The notes beneath the pieces were generated by a model. It worked only from the letters and a program-made list of their open reading frames with translations, did no database searches and had not been told where the DNA came from. Positions 1 through 57,579 of a stretch of 64,000 bases of DNA are shown here, one piece after another. Source of the stretch: an uncultured virus (IMG/VR IMGVR_UViG_3300032116_021735) (lineage: Duplodnaviria > Heunggongvirae > Uroviricota > Caudoviricetes); IMG/VR virus record IMGVR_UViG_3300032116_021735; one strand, given 5' to 3'. Every line of letters starts with the position of its first letter. Positions within the stretch are counted from its first letter, which is position 1. Both the position numbers and the translations under genes were made by a program.

Positions 1-3754
<3,754 letters not shown>

Positions 3755-5137: not shown

Positions 5138-5865
5138 CAGTAACCGAACCTTCCCTTTGCGGTTTCATAGTTTTGTAGAATTTCATCAGCAGACAAGAGT
5201 CTATTGTAGACCCTTAAGATTCCCAGGCTGCCTAGAATGGAGAAACCTGTGTTACCAGCCCATCCAGACCCATAAGGATAAAGCGTCATGATTGCGAGCG
5301 GGATCGTGTGATTAAAATCTCCGTTCGTGGGTGTATTGACAGTGAGACCGTGGTTAGAAGGACCTGCGTTCCTGATACCGTTCCTGTAAACGATCGCTTG
5401 CGTAGGCGTCATAATGAAGACCACATGTTCCCATCTACCTGTGCTAATGGCGGAACAGGAAAGTGCAAAGTTTCCTGAGTTGTTTCCCATCTGAAATCCC
5501 GTGTTGTACATGTAATAGTTGTATTCACCGTTACCGTTCCAGGGCTTTGAGACGTAGAAGCCAGCTGTGTCTGAGGAGTTGATCCACATCTCAAGTGCAA
5601 GCGTGTTGTTTCCAGCGCCGCTGGGAGTCCACTGAAACTGTCTAGAAGAATTGTTGATGGAGACGTAATCGTTGGATCCGTCGAACGTCATGACTCCGCA
5701 GTTGGCTGAAGAGAAAGAGACTCCGTTGACGAGAGAGCCTGCGATACCGACGCTGCTTAGATCTGTAATGACCGTGCCGCTTCCCGGGTATGACTTTACG
5801 TTGGCAGCATCATAGCTTAAAATGAGACCAGCTGTTACGATCTTGGGTGAGACGTAGCCTGACAT
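5137..5865 (-). CDS. LamG/concanavalin A-like lectin-fold virion protein (paralogue 1)
   Basis: SPKIVTAGLILSYDAANVKSYPGSGT, FDGSNDY, WEHVVF, YNRLLSADEILQNYETAKGRFG; SD-like AGGAG upstream. Confidence 0.8.
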   Translation of the reverse strand: MSGYVSPKIVTAGLILSYDAANVKSYPGSGTVITDLSSVGIAGSLVNGVSFSSANCGVMTFDGSNDYVSINNSSRQFQWTPSGAGNNTLALEMWINSSDTAGFYVSKPWNGNGEYNYYMYNTGFQMGNNSGNFALSCSAISTGRWEHVVFIMTPTQAIVYRNGIRNAGPSNHGLTVNTPTNGDFNHTIPLAIMTLYPYGSGWAGNTGFSILGSLGILRVYNRLLSADEILQNYETAKGRFGY

Positions 5866-5873: not shown

Positions 5874-8800
5874 CTATGGAACATATTCCACATCAAAGGT
5901 GGCATCCCGGCGGGCCCCGTTCACCATGTAGAAGTAGTTAGGTTTAATTCCAAATAACCTCATGAACCATCCTCTGCCTATTTTAACTCGATTATTTTCG
6001 ATGGATTCCACGTACAACGATTGCCACTTTCCGATGGGGGTGAGTTGCACCGCGATGGAGGCGGGATCTACGAGGGGTTCCCAGTAATCTGGTAGATCAA
6101 TCACTTCAGATTGTGATGCTCCACGAACGTAAATACCGTTTTCAGGCCCTTCGAGGGATCCGTACCGCAGCTTCCATCCTGGGCGGATCGGGTGAGGAAT
6201 CACGAATGATTTTGTGGCCGCCGCGAATGTGCCCGCAACCTCCAGGTTGAACGCTGGTGCGGATGTTCCGATGCCAACGTTTCCGGAACCACTCACGAAG
6301 AGTAGGTTGGCTCCTGCGGAGTTTTGCAACCACATCACGGCAGTTCCCGAGGCGGATGCCTGGTTCTCCCTCGCGTAGAGGGTGTGAGTTGTTGTGCCTA
6401 TGGAGCCGTTGATGTGGAGGCGAGCGGTGGGAGTTGCTGTTCCGATTCCAACGTTTCCACCCGAAGCGATCGCAACCTGGTTGGTGTTTCCCTCACGGAA
6501 ATGGATGATGTTTCCCGTGGGTCTGTTGATGTAGAGGTTCTGATCCGTTGCACGTGAGAGGATGTTGTAATCGTTATCCGTTGTGGATCCATTGAGTGTG
6601 ATGCCTGCGTAATTGGCGAACACTTCTCCGATTCTCACGTTGGTGGATGCTGCGTTTGGTACCTGAACCGTAAGGAAGGCTGTGGGAGAACTCGTTCCAA
6701 TGCCGACACGCCCATTGCTGTTGCTCCACCAGAAGTTGTTGGATCCGCTCAGGAGGCCGCCTGTGCCAGCCACAACAACCTGACCTGCAGTGAGGTTGCT
6801 TCCCGTGAGTGAACCGGAGATGTTGCCCGCGTAAAGGTTCCTCCACCTCTTGGTAGATGAACCGAGATCCCGTGTGAGATCACCATCGGGGTTAACGGAA
6901 CCTGAAAACACCGAGTTGCCAGCCACAACGAGGCGGGAACTATAATCCATCACGGAGGTTCCGATGCCCACGTTGCCTGCGGAATCTATTCTCATCCTCT
7001 CGGTGGCACCACCATCCTCAGAAGTTCCAAAAACGAGATCTCCTTGAGCGGATGCATGAGCTCTGATCACACTCCAGATTGCTGCAGCATCTTCTGCGTT
7101 TGAAGTTACGAAGCTCAGAGAAGAGAAGTTTCCATCCGTTGCAGAATTGTTCTGTATTGCTATGCGAGCACCGAGACCGTAAGAACTCGTGTCTGTGCTG
7201 CTGTCTGCAACCACAAGTTTAGCAGATCCACCAGCACCGTTTGGCGTTCCCACATTGATAGGACCAACTGCAACATCGAGGGCAACTGCGGGTGAAGATG
7301 TTCCGATTCCAACTCTCCCGTTGCTGTTGCTCCACCAGAAGTTGTTGGATCCACTCAGCAACCCACCAGCACCGGCCACCACCACCTGACCTGCTGTGAG
7401 ATTGCTTCCCGTTATCGATCCGGAGATGCTCGATGCGTACACGTTCCTCCACCGCTTCGTGGAGCTTCCGAGATCGTAGGTGAGATCCGCAGATGGATTC
7501 GCTGAGCCTGAGAACACAGAATTTCCGGCAACCACGAGGCGGGAATCGAGACCTATCGTTCCGATACCCACGTTTCCTGAGGAATCCACGATGACTCTGT
7601 TTGCCGCTGCCGTGAGATCGTAGAGCCTCCAGTAGCTCGCTGCTGCTGAACCCGCATCAACAACCTGTGCCATGAATCCGCGATAGGTGCCAACGAGATC
7701 GATGCGTGGATCAGCAACCTCAATACGCCCTGCCCCGCGAACGTCAAGTCTGAAACCCACAGTCGGGCTTGACGTTCCGATGCCAACATTTCCGGATGCA
7801 TCTATCCTCACTGCCTCTGTTCCGCTCGCACCTGAGGTTGCTCCCGTGTATATCGTAACGGGAGATCCCTCGAGGGTGAGTTCTCTGAGAGTATCCGAGG
7901 AGAGAGGATTAATCGCGGTTATCTTCACTGTGGAAGAAATGTTCGATTTGATCGTGAGGGCTCGATCCTGGTGGGTTGTGAAGCGTGCAGTTGAACCACC
8001 GGTCACCGTGTTGCCCACGAGGAGGTTTCCGTACAACTGCGTGTTTCCCGTAACATCGAGTCTGTAACCAGGAGATGATGTTCCGATGCCAACGTTTCCA
8101 TCATCTCGAACGAAGAGGAGTGTTGAGTTGCTTCCATTCACGAGGTGCATCGTGCTCGTGCTTGAGGTTGCACCACTCCCTGTTACTTCGAATCGAGACA
8201 CAGGGCTTGGACCACCGATGGAGAACTTGCCCACAGTTTGCTGCACGTTGCTCACGGGGCTGAGGAGGATGTTTCCGTTGTAGCGAAGCGCTCCTCCCGA
8301 AACTCCGAAGATGGTGGATGATCCAAAGTTCACGTTGAAGGAACCGTAAGCCCCTCCGCCTCGGTTGAGATCAAAGTACACATCATCGTTCGTTCCGGCC
8401 GCTGGGCCTCTGATGTAGTGTGTGTGATTGGCCGCAGATGTGTTCGTAGATGTTACGGTGAGGCCGTTTCCATAGGTGGCTCCGCCACCGATGCCGAGAG
8501 TTCCTCTCACATCAAGCGTGTTTGTAGGGGAACTCGTTCCGATGCCCACCTGGTTCGCTGAGTTGTTCCACCAGAAGTTGTTGGATCCGGAGAGGACTCC
8601 TCCCGTACCTGCTACCACAACCTGCCCAGCGGTGAGGTTGCTTCCTGTGAGCGAACCGGAGATATTTGCCGCGAACACGTTCCTCCACCGGAGCGAGCTC
8701 GAGCCGAGGTCCTGCGTGGCATCTGCACCCGGTGTTACGTTTCCGGTCGAGGAGATGGTGAGCCTTATGTTACCACTTCCATCCCTGTAGTAGTGTTGGT

Positions 8801-11800
8801 TGGCATCGTAATAGTTGTTGGATCCCACGTATCCGATGTAGAGGTTTGCCGCATTGGGCACCGATCCGTTCACAACGTGGAATGCAGCCTGAGGCGCGCT
8901 TGTTCCGATGCCCACCCGGCCGTCGTCCCTTACGAAGAGGAGAGACGTTCCGCTACTGTTGACGAAGTGGGCAGTTGTTGTTGAAGAAGTTGCTCCACTG
9001 CCTGACACGAGAAGTCGAGCAGTGATTAGTGCGCCTGTTCCTATACCGATGTTTCCATTACCCCCGATCACAAGCGCTTCATTTGATGCAACGCCGCCGA
9101 TAGGTCCTGCAAAAACACTCAATCGTTCGGTGGCACCATTGACCCCAAGAACCTCCAACTTGAAGCGAGCCGAATCATCACTTGCAGTGAACTGAATACG
9201 TGCTCGTTCGCTTCCGTTATTACCTAGAGTGATGCCAGTCGTGTCGCCTGAAGCGAGATTACGTGATTTGATCTGGCCAACAACGTCAAGCCTGTACAGC
9301 GTAGGATTGGTAATTCCTATACCTACGTTACCACTGCCGGAGACGAACAGAATGGAAGTTCCTGCCGAGTTCTGCACATCAAGGACGGGAAGCCCGGCCG
9401 TTTGTGATGCAACTCCCTCCCTGATGATTGCGGCTGCTGCGGTGCCTGCAGTTGTGTGGCCGAGAACCTGCAGAGTTGCAGTTGGGTTGGTGGTGCCGAT
9501 TCCCAGGTAGGAGTTGGCCTGTGGCATCACAGCCTTCTTCTTCGTGCCATCATCCACCACGGTGAGAACCGCCGCGTTTGCACTGATGATGGAAACCGAT
9601 CTCTGCTGGTTGTTGCCAAGGTTGAGGGTATCGGTACTTCCCAGACCATCGCTTATCCAACCAGTACCGATCCAGTGAACAGTTCCACCCACACTCGAGT
9701 TGGTGAGCGCGATCTGCGGTAAAGCTCCTCCTGTTGCCCTGTTTACCTGCAGAACCGTTGATCCCTGGATCGTTGAAGTTCCGATGCCCACCTGGTTGGT
9801 TGAGTTGTTCCACCAGAAGTTGTTGGAACCGCTCAGCAAGCCACCTGTACCAGCAACCACAACTTGACCTGCAGTGAGGTTGCTCCCTGTTACAGATCCG
9901 ATGATGTTACCTGCGTAGAGGTTCCTCCACCTCTTGACTGTAGAGCCGAGATCTCTCGTGAGATCAGCATCCGGGTTCGCAGATCCCGAAAACACCGAGT
10001 TACCGTTCACTGCGAGGCGAACATCCGTGATTGTAGTTCCCAATCCCACGAATCCCGAGGCATTCATCACGATGCCATCTGCCCTGTTTGCCGGATAGAG
10101 AACGTTACCGTTATCGCTCGTTTGCGAGATGTAGAGGCTTCCCGAGAGCTGCCCGATGCTGTAGTGGACTCGACCACCATCGTGGATCTTGAAGCCAACT
10201 CCGTTATCGAATGCGAGGTTAGTAGTTGCATCACCCAATCTAAAGAATGCTGCGTTCACATCAACTGATGGAGTTGCGGTTGCATCGTTCTGCGTTGTGT
10301 AGATGTGCAACTTTGATGTGGGTGTTGCAGTTCCAATTCCCACGTTTCCTGTGGATGTGAAACGGTAGTTTCCATCATTTCCATTGCCAGCCTGGAACTC
10401 TAGGGGATAAGCTGTTCCGAGGCTCTGTATCTTGGAAACGTTATTGCCACCTGCGAGGAGTATTCCGTAGCCGGAATCGATGGCAGCAATTGTTCGCGTT
10501 CCAGCAGATGCTCCGCTTCCCACCTGCAGGTTGTATCCTGGGTTCGTGGTACCAATGCCCACGTTGCCAGTAGTGGTAACTCCGAGGTATCTGGAAGCGT
10601 TGTTGTACTGCAGGAAGAAGCTGTTTCCTGCATTGTTATCTGTGATGAGTTGCCACAGATCGGTGGTATCTATCCTCAGGTTGTATCCCACGGTACCATT
10701 TGGAGAGGCACCCGAGCTTGCTCCTGCAGTTACCTGAGGACCGGCCACATTGCCAAAAACGTAGAGGGGTGATGCCAATGTGGGAGCAGCACCGATACCC
10801 ACCTTGCCGGAACCGCTCACCATGAGAATGTTGGTTCCTGCTGAGTTCTGTGTGTTGAGGATGTAGGCACCCCCAGTGGCCGTTGCAACTCCCTCACGCA
10901 CGAGGAATGTTGTATCCGTTGTTGTTGAGGATCCGGTTACGAACAGCCTCGCCTGTGGATTGGTGGTTCCGATGCCCACATTTCCGTTGTTTGCGAGGAT
11001 CGTTAACCTGTAAGTACCTGTGTTCGAATCCCTGAATCCCCAGGCACCTGCGAACGTATTGTGCGTGATTACGTTGGAGGTTGATGGGAATCCTGCAGGG
11101 TTATCCTGCGCTATGATGGAATCGTTCGTATCATTGCCAACGATGAGGTAGCTTCCCTTGTTGAGTTTCAATGATCCGTTGAGGATATCGAGTGCATATC
11201 CTGGGGATGATGTTCCAATACCGACTCTCCCTGTGGAGTTTTCCCACCAGAAGTTGCTGGAACCCGATATCAATCCTCCCGTTCCTGCAACAACCACCTG
11301 CCCGGCCGTGAGGTTGCTTCCGGTGAGGGATCCTGAGATGCTTCCAGCATACACGTTCCTCCACCGCTTCGTAGTAGAACCTAGATCACGTGTGAGATCA
11401 CCATCTGGGTTCGCAGATCCCGAGAACACGGAATTACCTGCAACAACGAGGCGGGAGTCGAGTGCGCTCGTTCCAATTCCAACGAAGCCACTTCCGCTCA
11501 CGAAGAGGAGAGAAGATCCCGCGGAGCTCTGCACATCGAGAACTCCCACTCCGCCTGCGGGAGATGCAACTCCCTCTCGAACAATCATCGTGGGTGTTGA
11601 TGTGTTTACGGATCCGGAGACAAACAGCCTCGCAGTGTACGATGTAGTTCCAATTCCTACGTTTCCGGCTGAGTTGATGAACATCCTCTCGGTGTTACCG
11701 ACTGTCTTGAAGACCAAGGAATTTGCGTAGTTGCTGCCGCCAACGTACCACTGTTGTTGTTGAGATTGATCAACACCTCTTATGGCATTGCTGTACCCGT

Positions 11801-14800
11801 TCGCTCCAGCTTGCAGAGTGAGAATGGTGCTTCCAAAAGTACTTGCGTTCTCGAACCACGGATAGTGATCGGAAGCGTACTCATTCTTGTACACGTGGAG
11901 TGTATCGTTCACCGTATTCGTGCCGATGCCTACTCCGAATGTTCCGCCTACTCCCAATGCGGTTGCATCCGCTCGAACTGACAAGAGGTGGCTTCCATCC
12001 CATTTCTGAACCGAGAGAACCTGAGCAGTGGGAGAATCAACTCCTGCTTTTACCGTGAGTGTTGGGGTGCTCGAGGTGGATCCCGAGATGAAGAGAGTGC
12101 TCGTGGCCGTTGTTGTTCCGATCGAAACGTTCCGCCCAAGGGGGTTGAGATATAGAGGATAGAACACCGATCCAATGTTGGATATCTCTCCCGTTTGAAT
12201 GTAGCTTGCTCCACCTATCGAGCCAATTAGCAGGCCTCCTCCTGCACTTCCCTCGATTCCAAGGAGGGCGTTTGAGGGGCTTATCGTGGAGTTGGATGCT
12301 CCCAGCACATACAACTTGCTCTGAGGTGTGCTTGTTCCAATGCCCACTTTTCCGGTGGAGTTGCTCCACCAGAAGTTGTTTGATCCCGACAGAGCCCCGC
12401 TAGTTCCAGCAACCACCACTTGCCCTTCTGTGAGATTGCTACCTGTGAAGGTACCGATGATGCTCCTGCCGTAGATGAACTGCCAACGTTTCAGACCGTT
12501 GCCGAGGTAGTATGCCGAATCAGCATCAGGATTGATGGATCCCGAGAACACTGAGGAACCTGCAACAACGAGCCGAGCATCGAGCGCACTCGTTCCGATG
12601 CCAACATTCGTTCCATCATCGTAAATGATGGAGTTTGCGAGTGCCCTCTCGCTGGTGAACTTCGGAACGTAGTTGGCAGTGCCACTTCCCGTGATCGTGT
12701 TGGGCGATGATATGTTAACAGATCCGTTGGAGCCCGTTGCGATCGTGATGTTGGTGCCCGCGATGAGGTAGGAAGTGCCATCGGTAAGTTTCGTGAGAGA
12801 ACCACTGAAAGCCGTGGAATAAACGTTTCGCCAAAGCTTGGCCGTAGAACCCAGATCATATGTGCTTGTTGCACCGGGAAGTGCCGATCCTGTAACAGAT
12901 AACGATCCGTTCACGGCAAGCTTATCTCCCGTGTTTGATATTCCTATTCCCACGTTGCCGGAACCTGAAACAACGAGCAGGGATGTTCCATCGTTGCCTT
13001 GCGCCTCGAACACGGCACCTACCGGTGAAGCTATTCCCGCTTTAACAATGAGACCGGATGCTGCCGATGTGCTCGAACCAGAAACGAGGAGGCGGGCGAG
13101 CGGATTGCTCACACCGATTGAGCTCATGCTTCCGATTCCAACGTTTCCGTTGCCATCTAAGAGAACTTTTATCGTGGATCCATCCGAGTGCCTGAAGATG
13201 TGGTTGTAGGCATCGTAGTAGTTGAGAGAGGCACCAAAGAACTGGGAGCCTATGAACAGGCCGAACGCGGCATTTCCCGTGTTGCTGCTGGATACTTGGA
13301 ATTTGCCTCCGGCAACGGGCACCACCGGGGATGAGGGGATGTTCGTTCCCACACCCACGAAGCCGCTGCCGCTCACGAAGAGAAGCGAAGATCCTGTGTA
13401 GCTCTGTACATCAAGTACACCCACTGCCGTTGTGGATGCAGTTACGCCCTCTCTGATCGTTGCTGTAGGCGTTGTTGCTGATGTAGATCCTGAAACGTAG
13501 AGCCTCGAGCCGTACGTGCTCGTGCCGATACCAACATTTCCGCTTGTATCGATCCTCACCCTCTCTGAGTTTGATGTTCTGAGTGCTATAGCTCTTCCGG
13601 TTCCCGATTCTATTTGCAGGCCGCTCAGCTCCTGCATGTAAGTTCCAGAATCTCTGAACAAGAGTTTTGAAGCTCCATTCACCAGGAGTGTGGCGGAATC
13701 ATTGTTGCCCACATGAAGCGTGGCCGAAGGTGAAGTGTTGTTCACGCCAACGTAGGTGCCATCATCGTATATGATACTGTTGGCTATGGCATTTCCGCTC
13801 GTGAACTTCGCATGGTAGTTCACCGTGCCGCTGCCAGTGATCACGTTGCTGCCGCTCACGAGAGATCCGAAATTCACCCACGTTGGTGCAGATGTTCCCG
13901 CAGATTGCAGGATTTGCCCTGAGGTTCCCGCCGCAGAAGAAGAGAGATGGCCCGAGGTGTTGAAGTAGCCCACACCTCCCTGTGTACCTCCAGATATTGT
14001 GTTAGAATTAAGGCCCGATATCGGTAACGTTTTATTGTAGAGATTATCTGTGGATCCCGTGGTTACAACGTTGATCTCGGCACCAACAAATCCGGCCTTC
14101 CACCGATCCGTTACCGTATCCCAGATGAGGGATCCCGTGGTGTTGGCTGTGGTATCGGCAACGTATACACCTCCGAAGTTGAGGGGAGATGGGCCTGCGT
14201 TGAGGAGGATCGCGTTATCCTTGATGTTCACGATCTCGGAGTTGATGATGGAGGATGTACCCAGCACGCGGAGATCTCCCGATACGTTGAGATCTCCTGA
14301 GAAGGAACCGGTGCGGGCATACACATCCCGCCACGAAGCCGTTGCCGATCCCAGATCGTAGGTGAGGCTGAGGCCTGGTAGGAAGGAGCCCGTGAGGGCG
14401 GTGGTTCCGAGGATGGAGAGGGCGTTTCCGTTGAGCACCGTGGTTCCGATGCCAACAGCTCCGCCTGCGTTGTAGATGGTGGAGGAGTTTCCAATGGATC
14501 CGGCACCGGTGAACACGGGAACGTATCCCGCGGTTCCTGTTCCCGTTACTGTGGAAGGCGAGGAGATGCTAACGGATCCGTTGGAGCCCGTTGCGATCGT
14601 GATGTTGGTGCCTGCTATGAGGTAGGAGGTTCCATCGATCAACCGCGTGAGAGAGCCTGAGAGCCCGGAAGCCCCGAAGAGAGTTCCGCTAACGTATGTA
14701 TCGCCTGCAAAAAGTGAGCGATCTGTGCCGCCGATGGTGCCCGTTACGTAGAGGAACACATTCGTTCCAGCCGGTACGGTTGCCATCGATTGCCGCACCA

Positions 14801-17800
14801 CCACCTTCGATTTCTGTGCGGTGAGGATGATGTTGCCCGGGGTAGTTGCGGAGTTCGCGGCTCCTGAGGTGAGCTCTATTCGCCCTGCAGTGCCCGTGCC
14901 GGCAGAGGGCAAGGATCCTGCGTTGAGGATGATGTTGCCTGCAGTTGCAGATCCAACGGTTGATGTTGTATCTCCCGCCGAGAGCGTGATGCTGCCGGCC
15001 GTTGCAGAAGTTGTGGTGGATCCGCCTGCGATGGTTACGGAGCCTCCGGGCGATGATGATCCACCTGAAGTGCCCGCAGAGATTGAGATTGGGCCGCCAC
15101 CTATCGTTGTTGTTCCTGTTGCAGCAACGAGAGAGATTCCTCTACCGGTTGCGGTGGTGCCCCTCGTGGAACCGCTGAGAGCGAGAGATGTTACCGTTGA
15201 TGCGATGGAAGGGTTCGATATCGTTGAAACCTGGAGGGTTCCAGATACCACTGCATCTCCACCGAAGGCAGAAACTCCGGAGCTCGATCCCGAGGATCCC
15301 GAAACGAAGAAGTAAACATCAGTTCCAATGCTCTGTGCCGCGTGCGATGATCCGAGGCCGCCTGCGATGGAAACAGATGCAGTTGTGTTGAGCCGAGGCG
15401 AGGGCGAGAGCTCGTTCCACTGGTAGAAGATCGGTGCGGTATTGCTTATCGTTACGGAACCGTTCGATCCTGTGGATATGCCGATGTTCGTTCCGGCCAC
15501 GAGGTACGAGGTGCCATCAGTGAGCTTCGTGAGGGAGCCGCTCAAACCCTGCGGAGCCTTGATCGCCCCGGAGATGATGTTCGTGCCCAGCGCGGTTCCG
15601 ATGTTGATGGAAGTTGCAGCCCCCGCGAAGTTCACCGTGGTTGCCGAGGTGTTTACGAGATCGAACGTGGCACCTGCAGTTATTAGCTTTGCAGATATAG
15701 TTCCATCTCCAATCCGCAGGATGTGGTTGATCTTGTCGAATGTTAGGCCGGCATCTCCTCCGAATGTGGATCCACCATCGTTGAACTGCACGTAGGTATC
15801 CAGCCCACCCGGCACGGTTGCGATGCTTCCACCTCCGCCTCCACCTGAGGAATCTGCACCCCTGAAGAGCCCACCGCGCACGAATCGGGCCTGAGATGTA
15901 TTTGATAGATCCGTTGCATTTCCTCGAACTATTACTGCCCCGAGGTAGATGGCTGCATCGAGCGTGTTGGCACCCTCTGTGAAGGCCTCTGCGTTGATGG
16001 CCGCCTCTGCGAGATCGAGCGTTGCGTATGTGGCGGATCCGTAGTAAACGAAGAACGCCTTGTTCACAGAGTTGGGAAACCAGTACACGCGTTGTATCGA
16101 GAACTGGCCGCCTGAAACTGCCGCGAGGGTTCCTCCGTTGTTGTACAACGTGGGATCTATCGTTGGGTAACCTGCATTGGCGATGCCGTTATCGATCACC
16201 GGTGTGGATCCGCTCACGTACTCCCTGAATATCTTCGAGGCGGTGGGAGCAGTATCCGTGCTCGAGAGAATGAGGTTGGGGGAATCAGGATTTGCAGTGT
16301 AGTTCCTACCCGCAACGTATGAAGTTCCTGAAGTTTTAGAGAGTGATAGGTTGGAACCGCTGTTCTCCAGGAGGTGCCCGCTCACCTTCAGTGGCCCGAA
16401 CGCCCTGTTGAACTGCTCGTTCGATTGGTTGAGCCCGTATGCAACGGTAGGAGCGGTGATCGTGCCGTTCGTTACAGAGCCCGATTGGTGAAGCACGCGG
16501 CCGATCGATATGATATCCGCGAAATCGTTGTTGGCGAAGGGGGTGAACTGTTGTATCAGGCCGCCCGATGAGTTGATGCCGATGTACGTGATCTGGGCGG
16601 ATCCACTGTATGTGAGGGATTGGCTCACGAAGGCCGGCCACGAAACGTAGTGAACCGTTGGGTAGGGATCGGATGTGGTGGAGGCGTTGTAATCCACCAC
16701 GAGGCCGCTGCCCGAAGTGATTGAGAATGAAGTGGAACCGTTCGCAGTGGAGAGAACACCACCGTGCAGGAGGCCCGTGGAGAGGGAACCTTCAAACCAC
16801 CTCATTCTAACGGTGTTGGTGAATCCCGTGCCGGGTTGGTACTGGGTGTAGTAGAGATCGTTGGTGGAGCCCGATGTGTAGATGTACGATGCCGATGTGT
16901 TCGTGGGTATCCTGAGGTTACCAACCGGCTTCATCTGGATGTAATCGGATACCCCGAAGGCACCGGAGATGAACGTATCTCCACCGAAAACTATCGAGGG
17001 ATCATCGGCTCCCGTGGAGGTTCGCGTTCCTGAAACGTAGAAGTTCACGCTCGCACCCACATCGAAAGGAGAATCGATTCCCACTTGATTTCCTATGAAT
17101 GCGGCGGAGCCCGTGGTGTAGATGGAGCCGGCGGTGGTGGAGAAGAAGAAATCGGAGTTCGCAGTTGCGTTCGTGGAGATTGTTACGGATCCGTTCGATG
17201 CCGAGGATATGCCGATGTTGTTGCCGGCAATGAGATAGGAAGTGCCGTCCGCGAGGCGTGTGAGAGATCCTGAGAAGCCGTTGGTTGCCCTGAAGGTGGA
17301 TGCTGTGAGGGCACCAGTGAGTTTATTGAAGGTGAGGAGAGAAGATCCAGCAGGAGCTCCCCCATCGTTGAATATTACCTGAGTATCAGATCCTGCGATG
17401 GGTCCGGTGGCTCCGGTAGCACCCACCGGACCGGTTGCACCAGTTGGTCCCGTGGCGCCTGTAGGACCTGCAGATCCTGGGGTTCCGGATGCTCCAGCTG
17501 GTCCTGCAGGCCCGGCTGACCCCGTTGCACCCGTGGCGCCTGCAGCTCCACCTCCACCACCTGTTGTTGAGAGAGTTATCCACCTGCCTCCAGACCAGGT
17601 GATTCCTACTGCATCATAATTGTTAGATAGAACTTTTGTTGTCGATCCATCAATTAAAACTCCGCTCTTCGATGATTGAAGCATGATGTTGTTCGTAGAA
17701 CACCTGCCTGCTGAATCTTTGATGTAATACAGGGTTCCTTCACGAGGTGAGGCTGGAAGTGAGATCGTTACGGATCCGTTTCCTGGTTTGATCGTTACAT

Positions 17801-18012: not shown

Positions 18013-20598
18013 TCAAGTTACCGTAAGCCCACTCGGATCGAACTGAAGCGAGGTGAGGGTTGCATCAGTAATTAATCTCAAATCAGATTCCTGCCTCAAC
18101 TTTGCTTCTCCATCGAAGTACGGAAGGGAAGAGGTCACTTCTGGGCTGAGGTTCTGTGAGTAGGTTCTTGCGGGGTTCACCTTCTCGTTGTATATATAAC
18201 CAATCCCTCTGTCGTCTTTCTTGTAGCGCTGGCGTATGAAATTGACCTCCGCGGCAGGAGGTCCTATCTGTGTTATCTCTTTTAGTATCGTCAACTTTGA
18301 ATCTGTCTGATTGTTGAAGTTATCGTTCGTCATGGCGTCGTCGTCCACGACGGACGAATTTACGTTTATAAACTTCGTATAAGGACGTTGCTCGAGCATG
18401 TCTCTGAATTGTCCGAACTTGTCTCTCCTGAATATCACCTTTGAGTTTACGGGGAGGCCGCTGAATAGACCGTACTTCCATCCTCTGATTTCAGGCGATA
18501 TTCCAAATACTATTGATTTTGAGGTGGCCGCTGAACCAGACACGAGGTACTCAGTGTTGAACGCTGACGTACCAGAAAGAATTGGATTTAATCTGTCGTC
18601 TGTTCTATACCCTTTAAATTTCGGGTAATTATTGCCACCTATTCTGCTGTTATCTACGACAGGAAACGATTCTTCTCTGTATGTGAAGATCTTGAAGTTA
18701 TCAATTGCAGCAGCTTGAGGGTCTGATGTTGCGAGAGGAGGATCATTTGGTAGCGCAAGAGTATATAAAAATATAAATCTATATTCGCCGGGATCAAGAA
18801 GATAATCTCCCAGATTATCAGGCGGGTAAGACAATCCGTACCCAGGCGACCCATATTCAAAACCAGGATAATAGCTCTCCTTAAAGTTATAATTTGACAT
18901 TGTGACAAATGTATTTAATGTAGATGACGATCCCGAAACATGATCAAAAGTTCTATCAGGGCCATAATTTGTTCCAATTATAACATCACCCGAAGGATTT
19001 CCAGGATAGGCACCAAAATAGCACGTCAATGAACCGTAATTATATCTTCCTGCAATGGCTCTGTCATAGCTAAAATTCCACGGATAAGAAGAAGTTATGT
19101 CAACAATGACTGGTGACTTATTGTCTTCTGAGCTCATTAGACCGCCGTAATCTGTCAAAGTATTCGACAGAAGAATCTTATTTCCTCCTTCTTGCTTTCT
19201 CCATGCTATTCCCTTTGTGGAGGTTGTTCCACTTACAATATTGTATAGATCGCCTTGATAAGGATAGTCTGCGGTTTTATAGCTTGTCACCACCCATGGA
19301 AATGACCAATCAGGATCTGAAACGTTGCTTGCAGACCAGCTTACTTTAAGTCCTTCTTCTTCATAGCTCGGTATTTGATCTGCAGGAGTTCCGTCTGGTA
19401 TGGTTTCTAGGTCTAGCTTGTATGACAAAATAAATTTCGTAGGATCGAAGGTTCTCTTTCCGTACGTTATATTGTTAACGTCTCCAAATCCAAACAAAAA
19501 TTTTATGATGTCGTCGGTACCCATTGACTGTGTCAACAGCATCGAACCGGCTTCTGCATTAGCATATGTTGAAAGAAAATCTCTGTCAGAAAATTTCGAA
19601 AGATTGACATCTCCGGGCACTAAAAGAGAATAGCCGTAAGACGTGTCGGCTATTCTCTTGTAATTCCATTCTTCTCCAGTTTCTGGTCCGTACCAGCCCG
19701 GTCTTATCTTGCCAGTGCCTAGAGATCCTTCAATATTTGACTTTATTCTTAGTGAATTTCTCGCGTTTTCGTTGTACCCGGGAAGCAACGGAAAGAAATT
19801 GTCTATTTTTAACGTCTTGTTAAATTCTACAAGATCTACGGGTGTCGCGTCTGTTTCAATTGAACCAGAGTCAAAGCTTTTAAATTCTCTCTCTCGCTTG
19901 TCGTAAACAGGCAATCTTGCAGAAAGAGTTGATCTCAATCCGAGAGTTTTGTCAAATCCTACAAATCTCTTTTCGGGATTATATTTCCCTTCGAACGGGA
20001 ACGACCACGTCCAGCTGTTGTTGACGGTCGGGTCAGTGTCGTATCCCTCGCCCGATCTGTCTTGAACAAGTGAGTTAAATATTAAATATCCTCCGCTGCC
20101 CGTCACGGTGGTGCCGTACGGAGACAAGACTGTGTGCTCCGAATTTTGGCTAGTCCACACTCTAGAGCCTTCTGCCCCTAGACATTCCGGTATGTTGGGC
20201 AGACAAGAATCGTAGTATCTTTCACTTGGATCGAAGTGTTGATTGATTCTGTACGACGTAGTCGAAGTCTTTTCATGCCAGGGGACCAACCTATAAGAAA
20301 GTCTTGGAATACTTCTCACGGCGTCTGATCCGTACGTTGAATCAAGCGCGGGAAAAGATTCTGCGTAGTATTTGCTAAAAAGTCGTCCCCTAGACCCAGT
20401 GACGAAGATTCTGTCTTTTTTCTCTGACTTAGATCTCGTATAATCGGATACAACTTCTGACACTATTGTGCCTGTGACGAAGTCGTCCTGCATCGTTCCG
20501 TAAAAGGATGCTTCGTAATAAGTGTCAAACTGATCTAAGACGGGATCATTTCCTATTACGTCTTTGACGACATCTGTGTAGACTTTTTCATAACTCAT
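18013..20598 (-). CDS. Putative virion structural protein (baseplate/tail periphery), 861 aa
   Basis: Long ORF translationally coupled within the baseplate-to-fibre operon; S/T/G/Y-rich; no family motif recognised. Confidence 0.6.
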   Translation of the reverse strand: MSYEKVYTDVVKDVIGNDPVLDQFDTYYEASFYGTMQDDFVTGTIVSEVVSDYTRSKSEKKDRIFVTGSRGRLFSKYYAESFPALDSTYGSDAVRSIPRLSYRLVPWHEKTSTTSYRINQHFDPSERYYDSCLPNIPECLGAEGSRVWTSQNSEHTVLSPYGTTVTGSGGYLIFNSLVQDRSGEGYDTDPTVNNSWTWSFPFEGKYNPEKRFVGFDKTLGLRSTLSARLPVYDKREREFKSFDSGSIETDATPVDLVEFNKTLKIDNFFPLLPGYNENARNSLRIKSNIEGSLGTGKIRPGWYGPETGEEWNYKRIADTSYGYSLLVPGDVNLSKFSDRDFLSTYANAEAGSMLLTQSMGTDDIIKFLFGFGDVNNITYGKRTFDPTKFILSYKLDLETIPDGTPADQIPSYEEEGLKVSWSASNVSDPDWSFPWVVTSYKTADYPYQGDLYNIVSGTTSTKGIAWRKQEGGNKILLSNTLTDYGGLMSSEDNKSPVIVDITSSYPWNFSYDRAIAGRYNYGSLTCYFGAYPGNPSGDVIIGTNYGPDRTFDHVSGSSSTLNTFVTMSNYNFKESYYPGFEYGSPGYGLSYPPDNLGDYLLDPGEYRFIFLYTLALPNDPPLATSDPQAAAIDNFKIFTYREESFPVVDNSRIGGNNYPKFKGYRTDDRLNPILSGTSAFNTEYLVSGSAATSKSIVFGISPEIRGWKYGLFSGLPVNSKVIFRRDKFGQFRDMLEQRPYTKFINVNSSVVDDDAMTNDNFNNQTDSKLTILKEITQIGPPAAEVNFIRQRYKKDDRGIGYIYNEKVNPARTYSQNLSPEVTSSLPYFDGEAKLRQESDLRLITDATLTSLQFDPSGLTVT

Positions 20599-22442
20599 GG
20601 TATGTAGCTGTTTCCTGCTCTTACATATGATCCGTAGAAAGTCATATTAATACTACCAGTATTCAAAGTCACATCATGACCTGTAACTGAGCCTACTAGC
20701 GGAATCAATTTTGTTAAAACATTATTTCCTGTGTTTGCGTCTGCAGCGCTGTTAATATTGTGACCACTTGCTGATACAGCAGGTCTTGTTTTTGATATTG
20801 CCAAAACTAACTTATCTCCAGGATTTAAGAGATAGGGAGCGTCTTTACTTGATGAAAATACTTCAGATGGGTATACATTGTAAATCCAAGCTTGGGGCGT
20901 GAACGTGGTGGAGTATGGCAGGTCTACAGGCACACCGTTATAATTGGGAACATAGCTTTGAATATCGATGTCAAGCTGAGAGAAAAATTCTTTTAAGTTA
21001 CCGTAAGCTGTTGATCTATCAACCTCAGTAGAATTTTCTGAGTAATAAGGGTTTAAAATAGTCGGGTCTCCTGTTTTGCTAAAAGCCTGACTGGATGTGT
21101 ATTCTCCTCCGAATATAGACCCTCCGCTGGGAGCAAATCCTGTCATTCCTCTGCCAAACGGATCTATAGAAGAAACGATAGAAAGCTGACTTTGAGCAAA
21201 AGTTGAGAGCGAAAAAGTTTTATTTCCAAAATATTCAGGTTCCCAAACGATCTTTCTATACTTATCCATTATCTCACGATAATAATAAACTTCACGCCCA
21301 AACTGTGGCTGCTTATAAGCATCAACTGCTGCATTTGGAATGCTTGAAGTCATATACCACACGGCAAGAGAGAGTCCGTTTACGCCATTTGATATGTTGG
21401 CTACAGTTTTTACAGTTATAGATCCTGTAAAAGCTGAATTTGCAGAAGGTTGATAAATAGTGGCATTTGGGCTTCTTAGCCCGTAGGGCTCGACGACGAC
21501 TGCATAAGCTCCTCTTTCTGCAGATTCCGGAGGAAGCCTCCTTGCTATTGCGGTCAACTTTGAATCTTGTAAGTGTGTTATGGTCCCTTTGGCAACTAAG
21601 TCTCTTATGTTGCTTTGACCGTATTTTTTTTGGCAAAAGAGCGAGAGCGTTAAAGCAGGTCCTCCCGAATCAATATACAAATTCTGTTTTATTTGAGTAT
21701 TGGTTGGCAAGTAAGTCCCAGTTGCGGTCGCCAAAGACGTAACAGTCCTATCCTGGAACCAGGATTCTCCCAAACAAAAAGGTATTTCAAATACCGCTTT
21801 TTCCAATAAGAACGGTCTGTCTATGTCAAGTTCAAAAGTCTCATCACTAGAAGCATCATAAATTTCAGATCTTTGAACTGACTTTGGGAAATCTTCGAGC
21901 AATGCATCAATTACGCTCGCGCCGCGCCGCCCTTGCGCGTCACGTATCTTATTTCCAATTATTTGTGATCCAACATAGCGAGACGTTGAGTTTGAGCGGC
22001 CCAGTCCACCAGCATCAGCTTCTGTGACTTGTCTGTATATGTCAAGACTTCCTGACATTACAGGATGACCGTAACAATCAAATCCCTTTGCGTCTTCAAT
22101 AATAAGAGAGCCTACTGTATAACCATCTCCTAATGTCCCAGAAGCTGGACTCCATTGAGTATTTATTGCAAATCTATTAAAAGGGCCGACGTGATCTCCT
22201 GTGCTGCGTGCCGGTATGTTCCAAGATTTTAATGTCTTGTTAAAGTAATAAATGCTGCAACTGCTAGGCAGCATTGAAGTCTTTGCTGCTATATTAAATG
22301 ACATCTTGATCTGCTCTTTGCTTAAAAGAGAGCGAGAAAAGCTGCCTGGTGTTTCACCAATTGGTCCGGCAGACCCCGTTGCATAAAAGGAATCATTTAA
22401 ATTACCTTGCTCAAATCTTGCATATTCAGAAAAAGGCTTCAT
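20595..22442 (-). CDS. Putative virion structural protein, 615 aa
   Basis: ATGA overlaps with both neighbours in the structural operon; no family motif recognised. Confidence 0.6.
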   Translation of the reverse strand: MKPFSEYARFEQGNLNDSFYATGSAGPIGETPGSFSRSLLSKEQIKMSFNIAAKTSMLPSSCSIYYFNKTLKSWNIPARSTGDHVGPFNRFAINTQWSPASGTLGDGYTVGSLIIEDAKGFDCYGHPVMSGSLDIYRQVTEADAGGLGRSNSTSRYVGSQIIGNKIRDAQGRRGASVIDALLEDFPKSVQRSEIYDASSDETFELDIDRPFLLEKAVFEIPFCLGESWFQDRTVTSLATATGTYLPTNTQIKQNLYIDSGGPALTLSLFCQKKYGQSNIRDLVAKGTITHLQDSKLTAIARRLPPESAERGAYAVVVEPYGLRSPNATIYQPSANSAFTGSITVKTVANISNGVNGLSLAVWYMTSSIPNAAVDAYKQPQFGREVYYYREIMDKYRKIVWEPEYFGNKTFSLSTFAQSQLSIVSSIDPFGRGMTGFAPSGGSIFGGEYTSSQAFSKTGDPTILNPYYSENSTEVDRSTAYGNLKEFFSQLDIDIQSYVPNYNGVPVDLPYSTTFTPQAWIYNVYPSEVFSSSKDAPYLLNPGDKLVLAISKTRPAVSASGHNINSAADANTGNNVLTKLIPLVGSVTGHDVTLNTGSINMTFYGSYVRAGNSYIP

Positions 22443-23776
22443 GGATTAACGTCTCTTTCAGTAAGAATTATGCTGTCATTTAATGCGGAATCAAATAATC
22501 CAGGTTTCGTAGTTCTTTGAACTCTTATCCCGCCTCCACGGCATATTTCAGATGCAGAACTTGACAAAGCTGTTATAGAAGAAGAAAGAAAAGACGACGG
22601 AATCATTGAGGGATATTCTACGCTCTGCGCAATAAAACTCACGGTAGATAAGTCGTTAAATGTTGCGCCGCTCGAGAGAAAAGATCTTTCATCCCTAGCT
22701 TTTATAATTGATCTGTTTTGTTTTTTAGACTCACTTCTCAAGTATCCGCCGTATGCAATTGAATCCGTCCCTTTTACAGCCTGATCATAGGTAAATCCAC
22801 AAGTTGCAGATCTTTCCTTCGATGTTACGTAAGTGGTTCCACCGGGCGGAAGATCTTCAAGAGCAGATATCAAGTCTTCCGTGTAGGAAGAATTCGGTTT
22901 TTCTCCCCTCGTATAGCGAGCATCCTCAAAGAATGAGATGCCGTTCTCTCCAGTTGAAGCATATCCTAGCGAAGGACCAACAATCACGCCGCCCCCGTTT
23001 TCATCTGGCATTCCGATCAGATCTACTGCATCGAAATAGGGCGACTTATTTGTCCTTGATGGTTCGAAGTAGTCGACCGACAACACTTGATCTGAGTACA
23101 GAAGAATTGTGGTGTTTCCATTTCCGAACTCTCCGCGGGTCGCGTGCGGCTCGAATGGGAAATTAATTGAAGAATTTGAAATTACAGGTCTTATCGGGAA
23201 AGGCTCTATGATTCCGTTTAAGACGAGATTTTCTTCTTGATTGCTGTTGGAGGTGACTATGGGGTAGACTATGTTATTTGAACTACCTCCGATTTCAACA
23301 AAAGTGACAGGATTGAAAGTCTCTACCTCGTAGTAGACGTCAGGAGACAGTATGTCAAAATCTGTGTATCCATATCTCTGAGAATCGTACAAGTGACCCG
23401 GTGTTCCGGCAGTTATCTTGGCAACACCAGCCGTCCAGTGCTTCTCCTGCGTTATTTCTATTCCGTTCTTGTAGGAGTCTATGCTCCCAGATATCAGATA
23501 GTCATTTGAAGATGCTAGAATTTTTCTATCATTACCGCTCGCATCTGTGACAGTCGAGCTTGTCAAGTAAAGGCTGTGGCCGTACTCCAGGTCATCTTTA
23601 ACTATCCTCTTTCTGGACATTAGACCCGAAACTGCATTTGACCCAGAAATTCTTGACGGAGACGTGGTTTCTAGGAAGCTTCGATTTCGTCTTATCTCTA
23701 TCTGTTCTCTCGTGTTAAAGTAATTACTTTCACAGTCAATATTGATAAAGTCTATCTTTTTTGGTTGCTGACTCAT
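22439..23776 (-). CDS. Putative virion structural protein, 445 aa
   Basis: Operon context between baseplate and fibre genes. Confidence 0.55.
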   Translation of the reverse strand: MSQQPKKIDFINIDCESNYFNTREQIEIRRNRSFLETTSPSRISGSNAVSGLMSRKRIVKDDLEYGHSLYLTSSTVTDASGNDRKILASSNDYLISGSIDSYKNGIEITQEKHWTAGVAKITAGTPGHLYDSQRYGYTDFDILSPDVYYEVETFNPVTFVEIGGSSNNIVYPIVTSNSNQEENLVLNGIIEPFPIRPVISNSSINFPFEPHATRGEFGNGNTTILLYSDQVLSVDYFEPSRTNKSPYFDAVDLIGMPDENGGGVIVGPSLGYASTGENGISFFEDARYTRGEKPNSSYTEDLISALEDLPPGGTTYVTSKERSATCGFTYDQAVKGTDSIAYGGYLRSESKKQNRSIIKARDERSFLSSGATFNDLSTVSFIAQSVEYPSMIPSSFLSSSITALSSSASEICRGGGIRVQRTTKPGLFDSALNDSIILTERDVNP

Positions 23777-23779
23777 GGC

Positions 23780-26700
23780 CTAGTACTTCTTTAGCTTTCC
23801 GACAATTTGTTGAACCAATAAGCTGTCTTCTATTACCTGCCTATCTCCGAGGTAATTGTCGCTGTGTCTGTACGTGTTCTTGTGCCTTTCAAGAACGTGA
23901 GACTCAACTACAAAATTGGTTCCCTTGTAAAGAGTTTTGCTTGGTATGAGCTGTTCGATGAAAGACGACATCGATACATCAAACCATCGATAAAACTCGA
24001 GAAACTTTCTAAAATCTGGTTTTCCTGAGAGTCTGTTGAAATAGACGTCTCTCAGTCTCTCAAGGTCTGGGTAGTCTGGTGAGAACATCAGCTCTGGTGC
24101 GCCTAGCGCATTATTCAAAGCGTCAAATGACGAGAACATGGAGATTATGTCTTTGTCTAGAGAGTCTACCATTGAAAATTCGATGGATAGCCTTAAGTCG
24201 TCAACGGGCTCCTCTTGTAAGAATCTCTCGTTACTTAAGAAGCTGGGCGCCGGTATTGCCCAGGGATTCTCTTCTATTAGATCGTTGCTCTCAAAACTTC
24301 TGATTCTAATCTTGTCGTCAGTTGCGGCTTCATCAAAGAACGGAGAAAGATATGAATAGTTGAATATCTCTCCAGAGAGAACCTTTTCTCCAGGTGAGAA
24401 ACCACTGCCTGTAGCTTCCAAATTATTCTTGCTAAAATCAAGAAACTGTATATTTCCTAGATTGTCTGAGTTTTTTTGAGGTTGCTTTTGAAGCGTGTCC
24501 AGACGTAACTTCTGGAAAGATCCTGAAGCTTTATTGATAAAATTGTAGTTTACTAAGGGATTGTTGACACCAACAGACTTCGGATTTCTTACGTGCTCTT
24601 TCCACTCTTCCGCAGTCATAGATTTTGTCCAAAATCTAAGATTACCAGCTCTGCCTACGAATTCTGTCGTTCTTGCAACGTCGTCGACGTTTAGCGTGTC
24701 ATTCAAGAACAGGTATCCAATTCCTTCGGGAATTGTCTGATTAGATCCAATCGATATAAAGGAGCCCGAAGAATTGTACTGTATCGATCCAGTTCTAAAA
24801 ATATTCCCAGCGTTAGCTGGGTCTTCTTGAAAGTATGATGCGGTAACATAAGCATCTGAAAGCTCTCCTGATTCACACTTTCCAACCCTGAGATAGTAAG
24901 AAGAAGAAACGTCTGATTCTATTTCGTCGTTTCTTTTACATCCGAGCGACACATTCCAGACGTCTCCGTCAAATATTCCTTTTCCTCTCATGTCAATGTT
25001 GAGAGAAAGCACGGGAGAATTAGACGACATGCCAGGTCTCAAGAATGCCTTGATGGATGCAGGCTGCTTTGGATATTCTTTGTTCTGTACGGCTACAACG
25101 TTTGCAATAAGACCAGGACCTGACGTAACATTGCTGCCCGTTACAAATATCCTAAAGATAGATTGACCTTCTGCGCTTGTCGCTTGAGATAATTTTTGGG
25201 GAGGAATTTTGAATATTGCCTCCATGTTCCAAGAGCCCGACGTCAATAGACCGTCCCATTGATAGTCAGTTCCTAGATTGACGCCAAGATCATTTTTATA
25301 AAAATTACCTCTCGGTAAAGGGAACCCAGGTTCAACTCTAGAAGACGATAGCGGGTAAGTAACTACGAGGGAAGAAGTTAGAAAATCGACCATCGCAAGC
25401 GACTCTATCCTCTTTTCTCTTGATGAAGACAGCTGCTTTATGGATGATCCACCGTATTCTCTTATTCTAATGCTGTTATCAGGATCTATTCCAATCGATC
25501 TCAAGAAAGATCTTATGCTGTGTTGAGTACCTTTTGACCTGATGATGTCAGGCATGTTTATTAGCACTCTTCGTGTTAAAATTGATTGTATCTTCTTTAG
25601 CGGAGTTTCAAAATTTGTTAAACCCTCTATTGCCTGACCCTCAGCAAATTGTTCAACTGTAGAATTGTTAAAGAACTTAGGAAGATAGAAGCCATAGTGT
25701 CTAATCATGTCTTCTAGAAAGTTGTCTGGTATGCTCTCTTCGTCGTTGTAGCTTACCGTCTTGAGAGTCACAAAAGCGTCTATGTAAGTTTTAATCTCAT
25801 CAAAGAATTTTGCCCAAATGTAAAGAAAAGACAGAATTATCTGTACAGAGCCTCTCTTTCCTTGACCCGGTATCCCTTCTCCTCCGTAAGGACTACCTCC
25901 TTCTCCTTCGATCGTGTTAAATCCATCCTGAGAAGCACCCTCGAGAAGATAGTGCTGCGGGATTAATTTAATAATATTGTTGGGATTATTTCTGTCGAAG
26001 TTGCTTGCTGACAAGAGCAAGCTTGCGTTTAGATTTAAAATCTCAGAGTAAGCAGGAAATAATATTTTTTGAAAGTCGCTTCTTTCATTGACAAGCAGGT
26101 TACCTTCTTGGTCAGATGCATTAATTCTAAGATCGCTATTGAAATTATTCACATTTGCATGCAAAGAATTACCAGAACTGTCAAGGACAATTGAATCAAT
26201 TGAAGAATTTCCATTCAAAGAAAGAGAACCGGAGGGTTCATTAAATCTATAATATAGCTTCAAATCAGGGGTCGAGTATAGACCCATCGAAGAGAAGAGT
26301 TTTTGAGTTTTTTCATCTCTGACAGAGTGAAAAACTCTTAGTTCATCCATCGTTCCGCTTAGAGTTTGAGTTGGACTAACAAGTGTATCACCTGAATAGA
26401 AGGAGCTGCCTGACCCTATCAAGAAGTTTGAATTGTCTATGTTTAACTTTTTAATTCTTAAAGAATTGAAACTTTGTGAGGCAAGAGTTTCGTTTACATA
26501 GAACTGTAGGACATCTTCCCTTGTGTCTTGTTTGTTAAGAATTAAGCATAGATGATTGTATTTGCCTTTTGCTAGTGTTGCAGTAACATTATTTCTTACA
26601 GATCCGGAAGCAACGCAGAATACAGCATTTGTGTATTCTGTCGATGAAGAGGGCTCTAGGTAAAAAGTAAAACCATCTATCAGTGACGATGTTTTTTGAA

Positions 26701-27277: not shown

Positions 27278-27289
27278 TTATTTCTCCTT

Positions 27290-30687: not shown

Positions 30688-30717
30688 TTCATGTCCTATC
30701 AGGTAATAAAATATCTG

Positions 30718-31185: not shown

Positions 31186-31240
31186 ACAGCTTAACTATCG
31201 ATCAATTTAACTTAGAGTACGTAGTTTTTGTTGCCAGAGA

Positions 31241-32713: not shown

Positions 32714-32717
32714 TCAA

Positions 32718-33068: not shown

Positions 33069-33085
33069 ATTTGACTTCTCCTAGA

Positions 33086-36622: not shown

Positions 36623-36667
36623 TGTCCCTATATTACCCAAAAATGAAAAGTTGTAATAAAAGTTAGA

Positions 36668-37480: not shown

Positions 37481-37490
37481 GTTAGTTTTG

Positions 37491-37520
37491 ATACTAACAC
37501 GTGAGACGGTAACAGTTCAA
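37491..37520 (-). promoter_or_regulatory. Sigma70-like promoter for the Cas4-like gene
   Basis: Minus strand TTGAAC-18nt-TAGTAT with extended -10 (TGn), ending 10 nt before the ATG. Confidence 0.5.
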
Positions 37521-39075: not shown

Positions 39076-39081
39076 CTATTC

Positions 39082-43261: not shown

Positions 43262-43262
43262 T

Positions 43263-44523: not shown

Positions 44524-44527
44524 TAAA

Positions 44528-47993: not shown

Positions 47994-47997
47994 GTTA

Positions 47998-48699: not shown

Positions 48700-48700
48700 C

Positions 48701-57573: not shown

Positions 57574-57579
57574 TAACTT

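Follow-up and report, generated by a model that had tools for sequence, protein, structure and literature searches.

What could remove a three-base word almost completely from parts of a gene, on a chromosome that carries the word freely elsewhere? The question is raised by the giant tail-fibre open reading frame (ORF) of an uncultured freshwater giant tailed phage (IMG/VR record IMGVR_UViG_3300032116_021735), of which a stretch of 64,000 nucleotides, here called the window, was analysed. The ORF (P0001, 5874..18011, minus strand) is present in the ORF list with a translation of 4045 aa, which is rich in Gly, Ser and Thr and contains many internal repeat modules. The word is GAC with its reverse complement GTC (together GWC). 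CheckV places a 59.8-kb record of the same phage at 18% completeness, from which we calculate a genome of ~330 kb.

Extent and level of the GAC/GTC depletion

The cleanest part of the GAC/GTC-free module, 13055..17246 on the minus strand, encodes residues ~256-1652 of the giant fibre protein and contains a single GWC (at 15735), where base composition predicts 143 and a first-order Markov model 168; by our own calculation the Poisson probability is roughly 1e-60. This count, the three sites in 6001-6900 (6521, 6705 and 6782) and the sixteen in 18301-18600 had been given in a preliminary description of the DNA and are all exact, and the slight GC-richness of the tract noted there also holds (GC 0.557). 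The depletion is, in fact, wider than that description had it. Within the giant ORF it covers 6001..17249 (minus strand), being absolute in the proximal part and leaving a low residual density of sites distally; the observed/expected ratio (O/E) is 0.11 for 6001-17300 and 0.12 for 501-4400, compared to 0.87 for 4501-6000 and 1.19 for the backbone at 18001-59000, and ~1100 GWC sites are found elsewhere on the same chromosome. The GWC-free gaps of the tract measure 2683 bp and 1512 bp; the longest such gap in a 187-kb relative (G004) is 452 bp. No other trinucleotide in the tracts deviates nearly as much as GAC/GTC, which is unremarkable outside them. A distinct relative, the 223-kb metagenome contig L029, shows the same pattern, with 13 GWC in 13 kb of fibre genes (358 expected) and a backbone of normal GWC content.

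The absence cannot be attributed to longer sites, since GGWCC, GTCGAC and GTSAC all have counts of zero for the reason that the trinucleotide itself is missing; the residual sites elsewhere have no common flank. The excess of GWT and AWC that had been expected to accompany the loss is present (GAT, GTT, AAC and ATC have O/E 1.3-1.9), but part of it follows arithmetically from the missing word. The avoided word need not be the palindrome GWC, as avoidance of the asymmetric GAC (or GTC) on either strand looks identical.

Codon usage in the giant ORF is strongly biased towards C-ending codons, which make up 646 of the 781 codons for Asn, Tyr, His, Phe and Ile (AAC 238/AAT 60, ATC 160/ATT 33, TAC 105/TAT 19, TTC 115/TTT 18). 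The preference is reversed only for Asp and Val: GAC accounts for 11 of the 158 Asp codons (GAT 147) and GTC for 14 of the 131 GTC and GTT codons, the remaining Val codons (n=311 in all) being GTG (133), GTT (117) and GTA (47). That this is more than an Asp/Val codon bias, as was originally argued, is supported by the out-of-frame words. We compared the sequence with 1000 shuffles that preserve amino acid sequence and codon usage by exchanging synonymous codons within the gene. The two out-of-frame phases of 13055-17246 together contain 0 GWC, with 15.4+62.8 expected and 7 and 47 the lowest values in any shuffle; the corresponding figures are 37 observed and 196 expected for the whole giant ORF, and 4+6 observed and 14.4+32.9 expected for the 501..3754 part of the second fibre ORF. 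The sense strand of the window tract has GAC 21 times and GTC 31 times (8 and 5 in L029), and all codon phases are depleted. The codon tables and the synonymous shuffle therefore bear out a loss on both strands and in all frames, that is, at the level of the nucleic acid, and the out-of-frame loss excludes codon or tRNA effects. A high GC content at third codon positions (GC3) was considered as the cause and rejected: the ClpP, PhoH and nuclease genes have high GC3 yet use GAC, and the module in L029 is clean at a GC of 0.44-0.51.

The giant ORF is followed downstream by three LamG genes and then by a second fibre ORF, whose end at the window edge is formed by a long collagen-like repeat. The N-terminal 1084 codons of this second fibre ORF (501..3754 of an ORF at 2..3754, minus strand, open at the window edge) are depleted (O/E 0.12; GAT 42/GAC 3), and so is one LamG gene (Laminin_G_3, PF13385; 3801..4460, minus strand), which has 3 GWC in 660 bp, GAT 12/GAC 1 and a GTC count of 0. 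The other two LamG genes (4460..5865, minus strand) form an island of normal GWC within the depleted region, with 12-16 sites per 500 bp across 4501-6000, GAC 7/12 and GTC 11/12, and nothing corresponds to them in L029's gene order. GWC is abundant in the collagen-like repeats flanking the modules. The repeat on the C-terminal side of the second fibre ORF (2..500, minus strand; Collagen Pfam, E=1.2e-21) has 33 GWC in 500 bp, most of which (23) are GGWCC due to Gly-Pro codon pairs, and the shuffle shows no depletion there. The Gly-X-Y tract at 17381..17560 (minus strand), which is the upstream junction of the giant-fibre module, is likewise non-depleted, with 6 GWC, 5 of them GGWCC from Gly-Pro codon pairs; together with the first 250 codons of the giant fibre gene it retains 11 GWC sites. 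A weak Collagen Pfam match is found at aa 155-204 of P0001.

Module borders and maintenance of the avoidance

The borders of the tracts are sharp, with gaps starting or ending at 17247, 5861, 60355 and 61242. At the first of these, the similarity between the window and L029 jumps at window position 17270 (L029 position 10502), no more than ~20 bp from where the desert starts and immediately downstream of the collagen-like tract; the block 17469-17208 has 67% nucleotide similarity and the block starting at 17270 has 84%. The backbones of the two phages are ~74% identical at the nucleotide level, and the fibre module is 80-86% identical over four codon-aligned blocks and 89% identical in amino acid sequence. 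In the N-terminal anchor, a fraction of 0.65 of the conserved residues use different codons in the two phages; this fraction is 0.36-0.57 for backbone genes and 0.36 for the module. The idea that the tracts have a history separate from that of the backbone is thus supported in the giant fibre gene, where the desert edge coincides with the jump in similarity, and the same module is found on two backbones.

The contigs of four public sequencing runs were aligned to 6001-26000. Runs X14 and X16 cover ~12757-17267 at 95-99% identity and leave 18007-26000 almost without coverage. Contigs from other samples join fibre modules of the region 6400-13600 in other orders (for example, 13545 to 9355 and 8673 to 12757), and many contig ends and loose ends in other samples fall at 17427-17470, in the collagen tract. 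We conclude that the giant fibre gene in nature is a shuffled array of modules, and the GAC/GTC-free tracts appear to be modules delimited by recombination. One contig from another sample has a 9-bp deletion in the collagen tract, at 17530.

Homologous fibre genes were compared among IMG/VR and metagenome contigs. The three contigs of the same phage (L001, L003 and L028) are also depleted. Fibre relatives at 57-79% protein identity (L002 and L004-L009) show no strong depletion, with O/E ~0.8-1.0 where it was computed over the whole fibre gene, and neither does L189, which is 70-75% identical to the tract in nucleotide sequence and has per-kb O/E of ~0.5-1.0 with one 1-kb bin at 0.30. There is no depleted kb window in G004 or G005, and no relative depleted of GWC genome-wide was found by the IMG/VR scans, the metagenome scan or the protein search. 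Homologues include P0002 (84%) and P0005 (88%); tblastn with P0001 gives partial matches of 25-42% to tail-fibre and tailspike genes of cultured phages, and a megablast of tract and backbone against 50,697 phage records returned no match.

One of the non-depleted relatives, L005, is syntenic, with backbone proteins 72-78% identical and a fibre segment 78.5% identical to the window. At its 59 GWC positions the window reads GAT (13), AAC, ATC, GTT, GTG, GTA, GCC and others; 24 of the 59 are the products of a single C>T or G>A change and 35 are not simple transitions. The GC3 of the fibre segment is 0.66 in the window and 0.40 in L005.

Two observations on other words and other phages may be recorded here. 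CATG is low in the tracts and was considered as part of the signal, but it is equally low in non-depleted relatives (O/E 0.2-0.5) and was discarded. The fibre genes of the window, L004, L005, L009 and L021 are all short of it (O/E 0-0.5; in L021, 0 with 28.5 expected); it is near normal in the backbones of the window (1.11) and L005 (0.88), and also low in the rest of L021 (0.48); the shortage may be due in part to a low content of Met and His. In a third phage (L021/L022/L023) the fibre gene at 5001-10351 is weakly depleted of GWC (O/E 0.47) and has an excess of CTAG and GTAC of ~2x.

The comparison of the two carriers shows that the word has stayed absent through substantial divergence. Over 1671 aligned codons of the window and L029, 536 of the 1486 conserved residues differ synonymously, and the third letter of Asn, Tyr, His and Phe codons differs at 87 of 246. 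Asp, on the other hand, is GAT in both carriers at 68 of 71 positions, and GTC encodes 1 of 101 Val (Fisher p 1e-39 and 5e-23). The GC of the module is 0.55-0.58 in the window (6001-17300) and 0.44-0.51 in L029 (10001-23000), at 80-86% nucleotide identity, which indicates that third positions shifted strongly while the motif stayed absent. Among strain variants, none of the 40 listed of 494 creates a GWC, though 11.7% of the possible single changes in the segment would do so; one would yield GAC but for an accompanying change next to it, and another removes the site of the window at 13052. The avoidance is, therefore, maintained and not merely inherited.

A second and independent GWC-poor patch (60356..61241, plus strand) lies inside a helicase gene (60309-61958), of whose 1.65 kb it covers 0.9. 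The test interval has 4 GWC (3 of them interior), as against 19.1 ± 2.8 in a gene-wide synonymous shuffle (minimum 7 of 2000), and Asp codons are GAT 10/GAC 1 in the patch and 7/13 in the flanks. Ten IMG/VR relatives have 11-34 GWC in the patch and the closest seven have 11-19; in the rest of the gene the closest seven have 24-27 and the window 25. Depletion of the patch in relatives is partial and graded (O/E 0.33-0.5). The divergence of the patch from close relatives does not exceed that of the flanks (87-89% versus 82-86% nucleotide identity). In comparison with the closest relative (L082), 11 of the 98 differences in the patch fall on the G or C of GWC sites of L082 (2.9 expected, p=1.5e-4), and in the rest of the gene 7 of 99 do so (6.4 expected). 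At nine positions in the patch, GWC is present in at least six of the ten relatives and absent from the window; eight of the nine are single transitions, on mixed strands, and these eight are predicted from codon phase to be synonymous. A purge with sharp borders thus also took place on the window lineage's own branch, in a gene that does not encode a fibre.

Candidate causes

The rest of the chromosome is untouched, and from this we conclude that the agent is not one for which a single site is fatal, as in classical restriction, nor one that marks all DNA, as in phage-wide methylation. Our preferred explanation, which we put forward tentatively and at well short of even expectation, is that the tracts are recombination-delimited modules kept free of GAC/GTC by continuing selection, either through a locally acting, additive reader such as a CRISPR protospacer-adjacent motif (PAM) or through repeated copying from a donor. 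The modules would consist of one LamG gene, the 0.9-kb helicase patch and, in two giant tail-fibre genes, the distal part that serves host recognition. Ongoing selection at the nucleic-acid level, most probably on double-stranded DNA of which either strand is read, would exclude the strand-symmetric pair GAC/GTC; sites would be lost mostly by synonymous transitions and barred from re-arising, with other synonymous positions free to turn over. Our best guess for the agent is a reader that acts locally and additively and needs the 3-nt motif beside each target, and the pressure would weigh most heavily on modules common to many co-circulating phages. A CRISPR PAM is proposed because it belongs to a known system with an additive per-site benefit of this kind. 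Alternatively, the source could be an unsampled relative purged genome-wide, from which the tracts would have been recombined in repeatedly. Recombination is favoured by the sharp borders, and a pressure acting in these lineages by the helicase patch and the graded depletion in its relatives.

Several points count against selection by a local reader. The sharp borders would be expected at least as well from recombination with a purged source, and selection on a PAM should in principle act on every part of the genome, so that confinement to tracts needs an extra assumption such as a shared module or a priming hot spot. We know of no described PAM of GAC or GTC. When 401 Bacteroidota genomes were compared with the backbone at 18001-38000, only short matches at chance level were found and none was spacer-like, and the best exact 25-mer among these genomes does not lie in a repeat array. 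The differences that separate the window's module from that of L029 could have built up in a donor clade as yet unseen instead of in these genomes. The strain variants seen were only 40 of 494, and the inspected sequence amounts to ~76 kb of the roughly 330-kb genome.

The copying of fibre modules and helicase patch by homologous recombination from a related phage lineage without GAC/GTC genome-wide, in which a host or competitor cuts or targets the word, is in essence the defence on a donor lineage that the preliminary description had suggested. It would account for the sharp borders, for the coincidence of the fibre-gene edge with the break in similarity to L029, and for the finding of the module on two backbones as well as in other contexts. 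The island of normal GWC at 4460-5865 would resemble a later insertion, and the low residual density in the distal part of the gene looks as if that part were older. We nevertheless consider such a mosaic relic unlikely. No contig depleted genome-wide was found, and those that carry close copies (91-100%: L001, L003, L028 and L029) have normal backbones; the more distant fibre relatives described above, L189 among them, are not strongly depleted, nor has G004 a depleted kb window. The helicase patch, moreover, does not exceed its flanks in divergence from close relatives, it lost its sites on the window's own branch, and its depletion in relatives is graded. An in-lineage purge and sharp borders would be united if mismatches in heteroduplexes between co-infecting phages were corrected with a context bias, in the manner of very-short-patch repair, that removes GAC/GTC and otherwise converts T to C. 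Only segments that undergo recombination or show high conservation between phages (the fibre module and the helicase) are depleted, these segments have raised GC3 (0.57-0.66 versus 0.30-0.42), the recent losses are nearly all transitions (8/9) and the borders are as sharp as those of conversion tracts. This biased repair is, in our view, improbable: ClpP and PhoH have high GC3 without loss of GWC, the L029 module is clean without high GC, GTC has often become GTG or GTA, which is not the outcome of a T:G mismatch, and the HhH-GPD domain was found in 0/5 related records. To our knowledge, no repair enzyme has a GAC/GTC context.

Decay of a methylated site had been the first suggestion, a GW(5-methylcytosine) methyltransferase marking the DNA and deamination turning GWC into GWT or AWC, as happens at CpG. 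The excess of GAT, GTT, AAC and ATC agrees with it, as do the simple transitions at 24/59 L005 sites and 8/9 sites lost from the helicase patch. However, selection, too, would apparently choose these transitions as the synonymous options, and the suggestion has not been borne out. The backbone of the same molecule has O/E 1.19; third positions have moved overall from T to C (GC3 0.40 in L005, 0.66 in the window); GTC is replaced by GTG (133) or GTA (47) about as often as by GTT (117), and 35/59 replacements are not simple transitions; and O/E values of 0.006-0.04 are far below CpG-type equilibria such as that of vertebrates. The window encodes no C5-methyltransferase, and PF00145 is found in 0/5 related fragments, although these are 11-52% complete and the point is accordingly weak. 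We regard methylation decay as very improbable. The preliminary description was right that no responsible gene lies in the window, as Pfam annotation of its 52 ORF translations reveals no DNA methyltransferase or other obvious agent.

A cause at the level of RNA, in which the messenger RNAs avoid GAC and GUC owing to a sequence-specific endoribonuclease or to a tRNA or frameshifting problem, has in its favour that avoidance of GAC and GUC on a single strand is indistinguishable from avoidance on both, that in every depleted gene the strand read as sense is a depleted one, and that very long messages are large targets. Yet parts of genes are purged, not whole transcripts (0.9 of 1.65 kb in the helicase); the 5' 750 nt of the fibre gene are spared, the collagen end of the second fibre ORF is GWC-rich, the neighbouring baseplate genes on the same strand are normal, and the out-of-frame loss excludes simple codon or tRNA effects. 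Such a cause is, we believe, highly improbable. GTC is also the classical recognition triplet of the T7 gp4 primase, and a phage or host primase that starts at 5'-GTC-3' could have produced tracts that avoid lagging-strand priming, since absence on both strands would block priming over 4-13 kb. Recognition by the T7 primase is treated in excerpts of one source (PMC2910064). The zinc ribbon of T7-type primases (PF08273) occurs in 0/5 related fragments, the only primase-like signal being a sub-threshold DnaG-type ribbon (PF01807) in G004; there is no reason for a fibre module or half a helicase gene to avoid priming, and the mobility-linked borders are left unexplained. A primase desert seems to us scarcely credible.

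The pattern shares features with several known systems. As in restriction-site (palindrome) avoidance, a short word read on both strands is counter-selected in DNA, largely through synonymous changes. Such avoidance in phages is known for sites of 4-8 nt, is genome-wide and is moderate; here a 3-nt word is nearly abolished (O/E 0.006-0.12), and only in tracts, with the ~1100 sites elsewhere left in place. The avoidance is not genome-wide (backbone 1.19, tracts 0.11-0.12; normal backbone in L029), and the avoided word is not a 4-8-nt recognition site, the trinucleotide being missing in every flank context. Depletion of a CRISPR PAM likewise concerns a motif of 2-3 nt with a local, additive benefit per site, on both strands and independently of frame, but the reported effects are weak and statistical; excerpts of one study describe it as mild and "especially centred" on protospacers (PMC12174588), and a passage of another offers a precedent for local PAM depletion in phages (PMC4246573). 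CpG depletion through deamination of 5-methylcytosine is similar in that a short C-containing word is lost and transition products are in excess, and differs in that here the loss is restricted to tracts of one molecule, GC3 has risen and there are replacements other than transitions. Avoidance confined to part of a genome or to particular genes is known from the first-step-transfer DNA of phage T5, which lacks EcoRI sites, and from MazF-resistant genes, which are ACA-less; those cases are tied to the order of DNA entry or to whole transcripts, the present one to internal parts of genes with sharp borders, one of them a recombination junction. Diversity-generating retroelements, with their AAC-rich variable repeats, are also specific to phage receptor-binding genes and leave a base-specific footprint. 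They act, however, on adenines in repeats of ~100-150 bp and need a reverse transcriptase and a template repeat, unlike the loss of GAC/GTC over 11-17 kb, and Pfam finds no reverse transcriptase domain among the window ORFs. We know of no mechanism that explains a tract-limited absence of GAC/GTC. A literature search brought to light neither a description of fibre genes depleted of GAC/GTC nor a methyltransferase specific for GWC; the enzyme that comes closest is ModP2, with the 5-nt type III site GWC(m4C)CT (PMC10123105). We rate the pattern as a form of short-motif avoidance that is new in being much stronger and limited to tracts.

Surrounding genes and significance

The backbone at 18013..59000 (no single strand assigned), with normal or slightly high GWC (O/E 1.19), comprises baseplate genes and a large glycan-biosynthesis cluster; the window as a whole encodes baseplate wedge proteins (gp6- and gp25-like), the 24-kb glycan-biosynthesis cluster, ClpP, the helicase and a PIN-PhoH protein. 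The sugar-nucleotide and glycan cluster (33000-57000) directly adjoins the baseplate and fibre genes and contains NeuB, CMP-type cytidylyltransferase, GDP-mannose dehydratase, RmlD-like and NTP-transferase genes as well as ~10 glycosyltransferases and three O-methyltransferase-like genes. It may serve in glycosylation of the Ser/Thr-rich fibres or in remodelling of the host surface. Four genes combine a GC3 of 0.56-0.68 with a strong preference for C-ending codons in a backbone of GC3 0.23-0.42: a PD-(D/E)XK nuclease (36668-37480), ClpP (59668-60264), the helicase and PIN-PhoH (62782-63999). The helicase patch excepted, none of them is GWC-depleted. An 88-aa ORF (62455-62721, minus strand) situated between the helicase and PIN-PhoH genes has a sigma-70 region 4 domain and may encode a phage transcription factor. 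ClpP proved uninformative as an indicator of the host, its best matches being at ~41% (cyanobacteria and Lachnospiraceae).

Avoidance of short motifs is usually a weak, genome-wide statistic; here, two phage lineages and several environmental samples show 11-17 kb of essential coding sequence from which a trinucleotide has all but disappeared, and the pattern is confined to exchangeable host-recognition modules. There is a fair chance, if less than an even one, that the tracts are the footprint of an undescribed local targeting system with a 3-base motif (GAC on either strand), or of a purge linked to recombination, and that the host-range modules are "invisible" to it. Should a defence or targeting system be responsible, its motif, GAC/GTC, is already known and permits a direct search for the system; mobile cassettes free of the motif would in that case represent a novel form of counter-defence that composition alone suffices to detect. 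Should the cause instead be a bias linked to recombination, phage mosaicism would be shaped by a force that is new. Either way, a scan of composition for motif-free tracts reveals mobile modules and the pressures on them.

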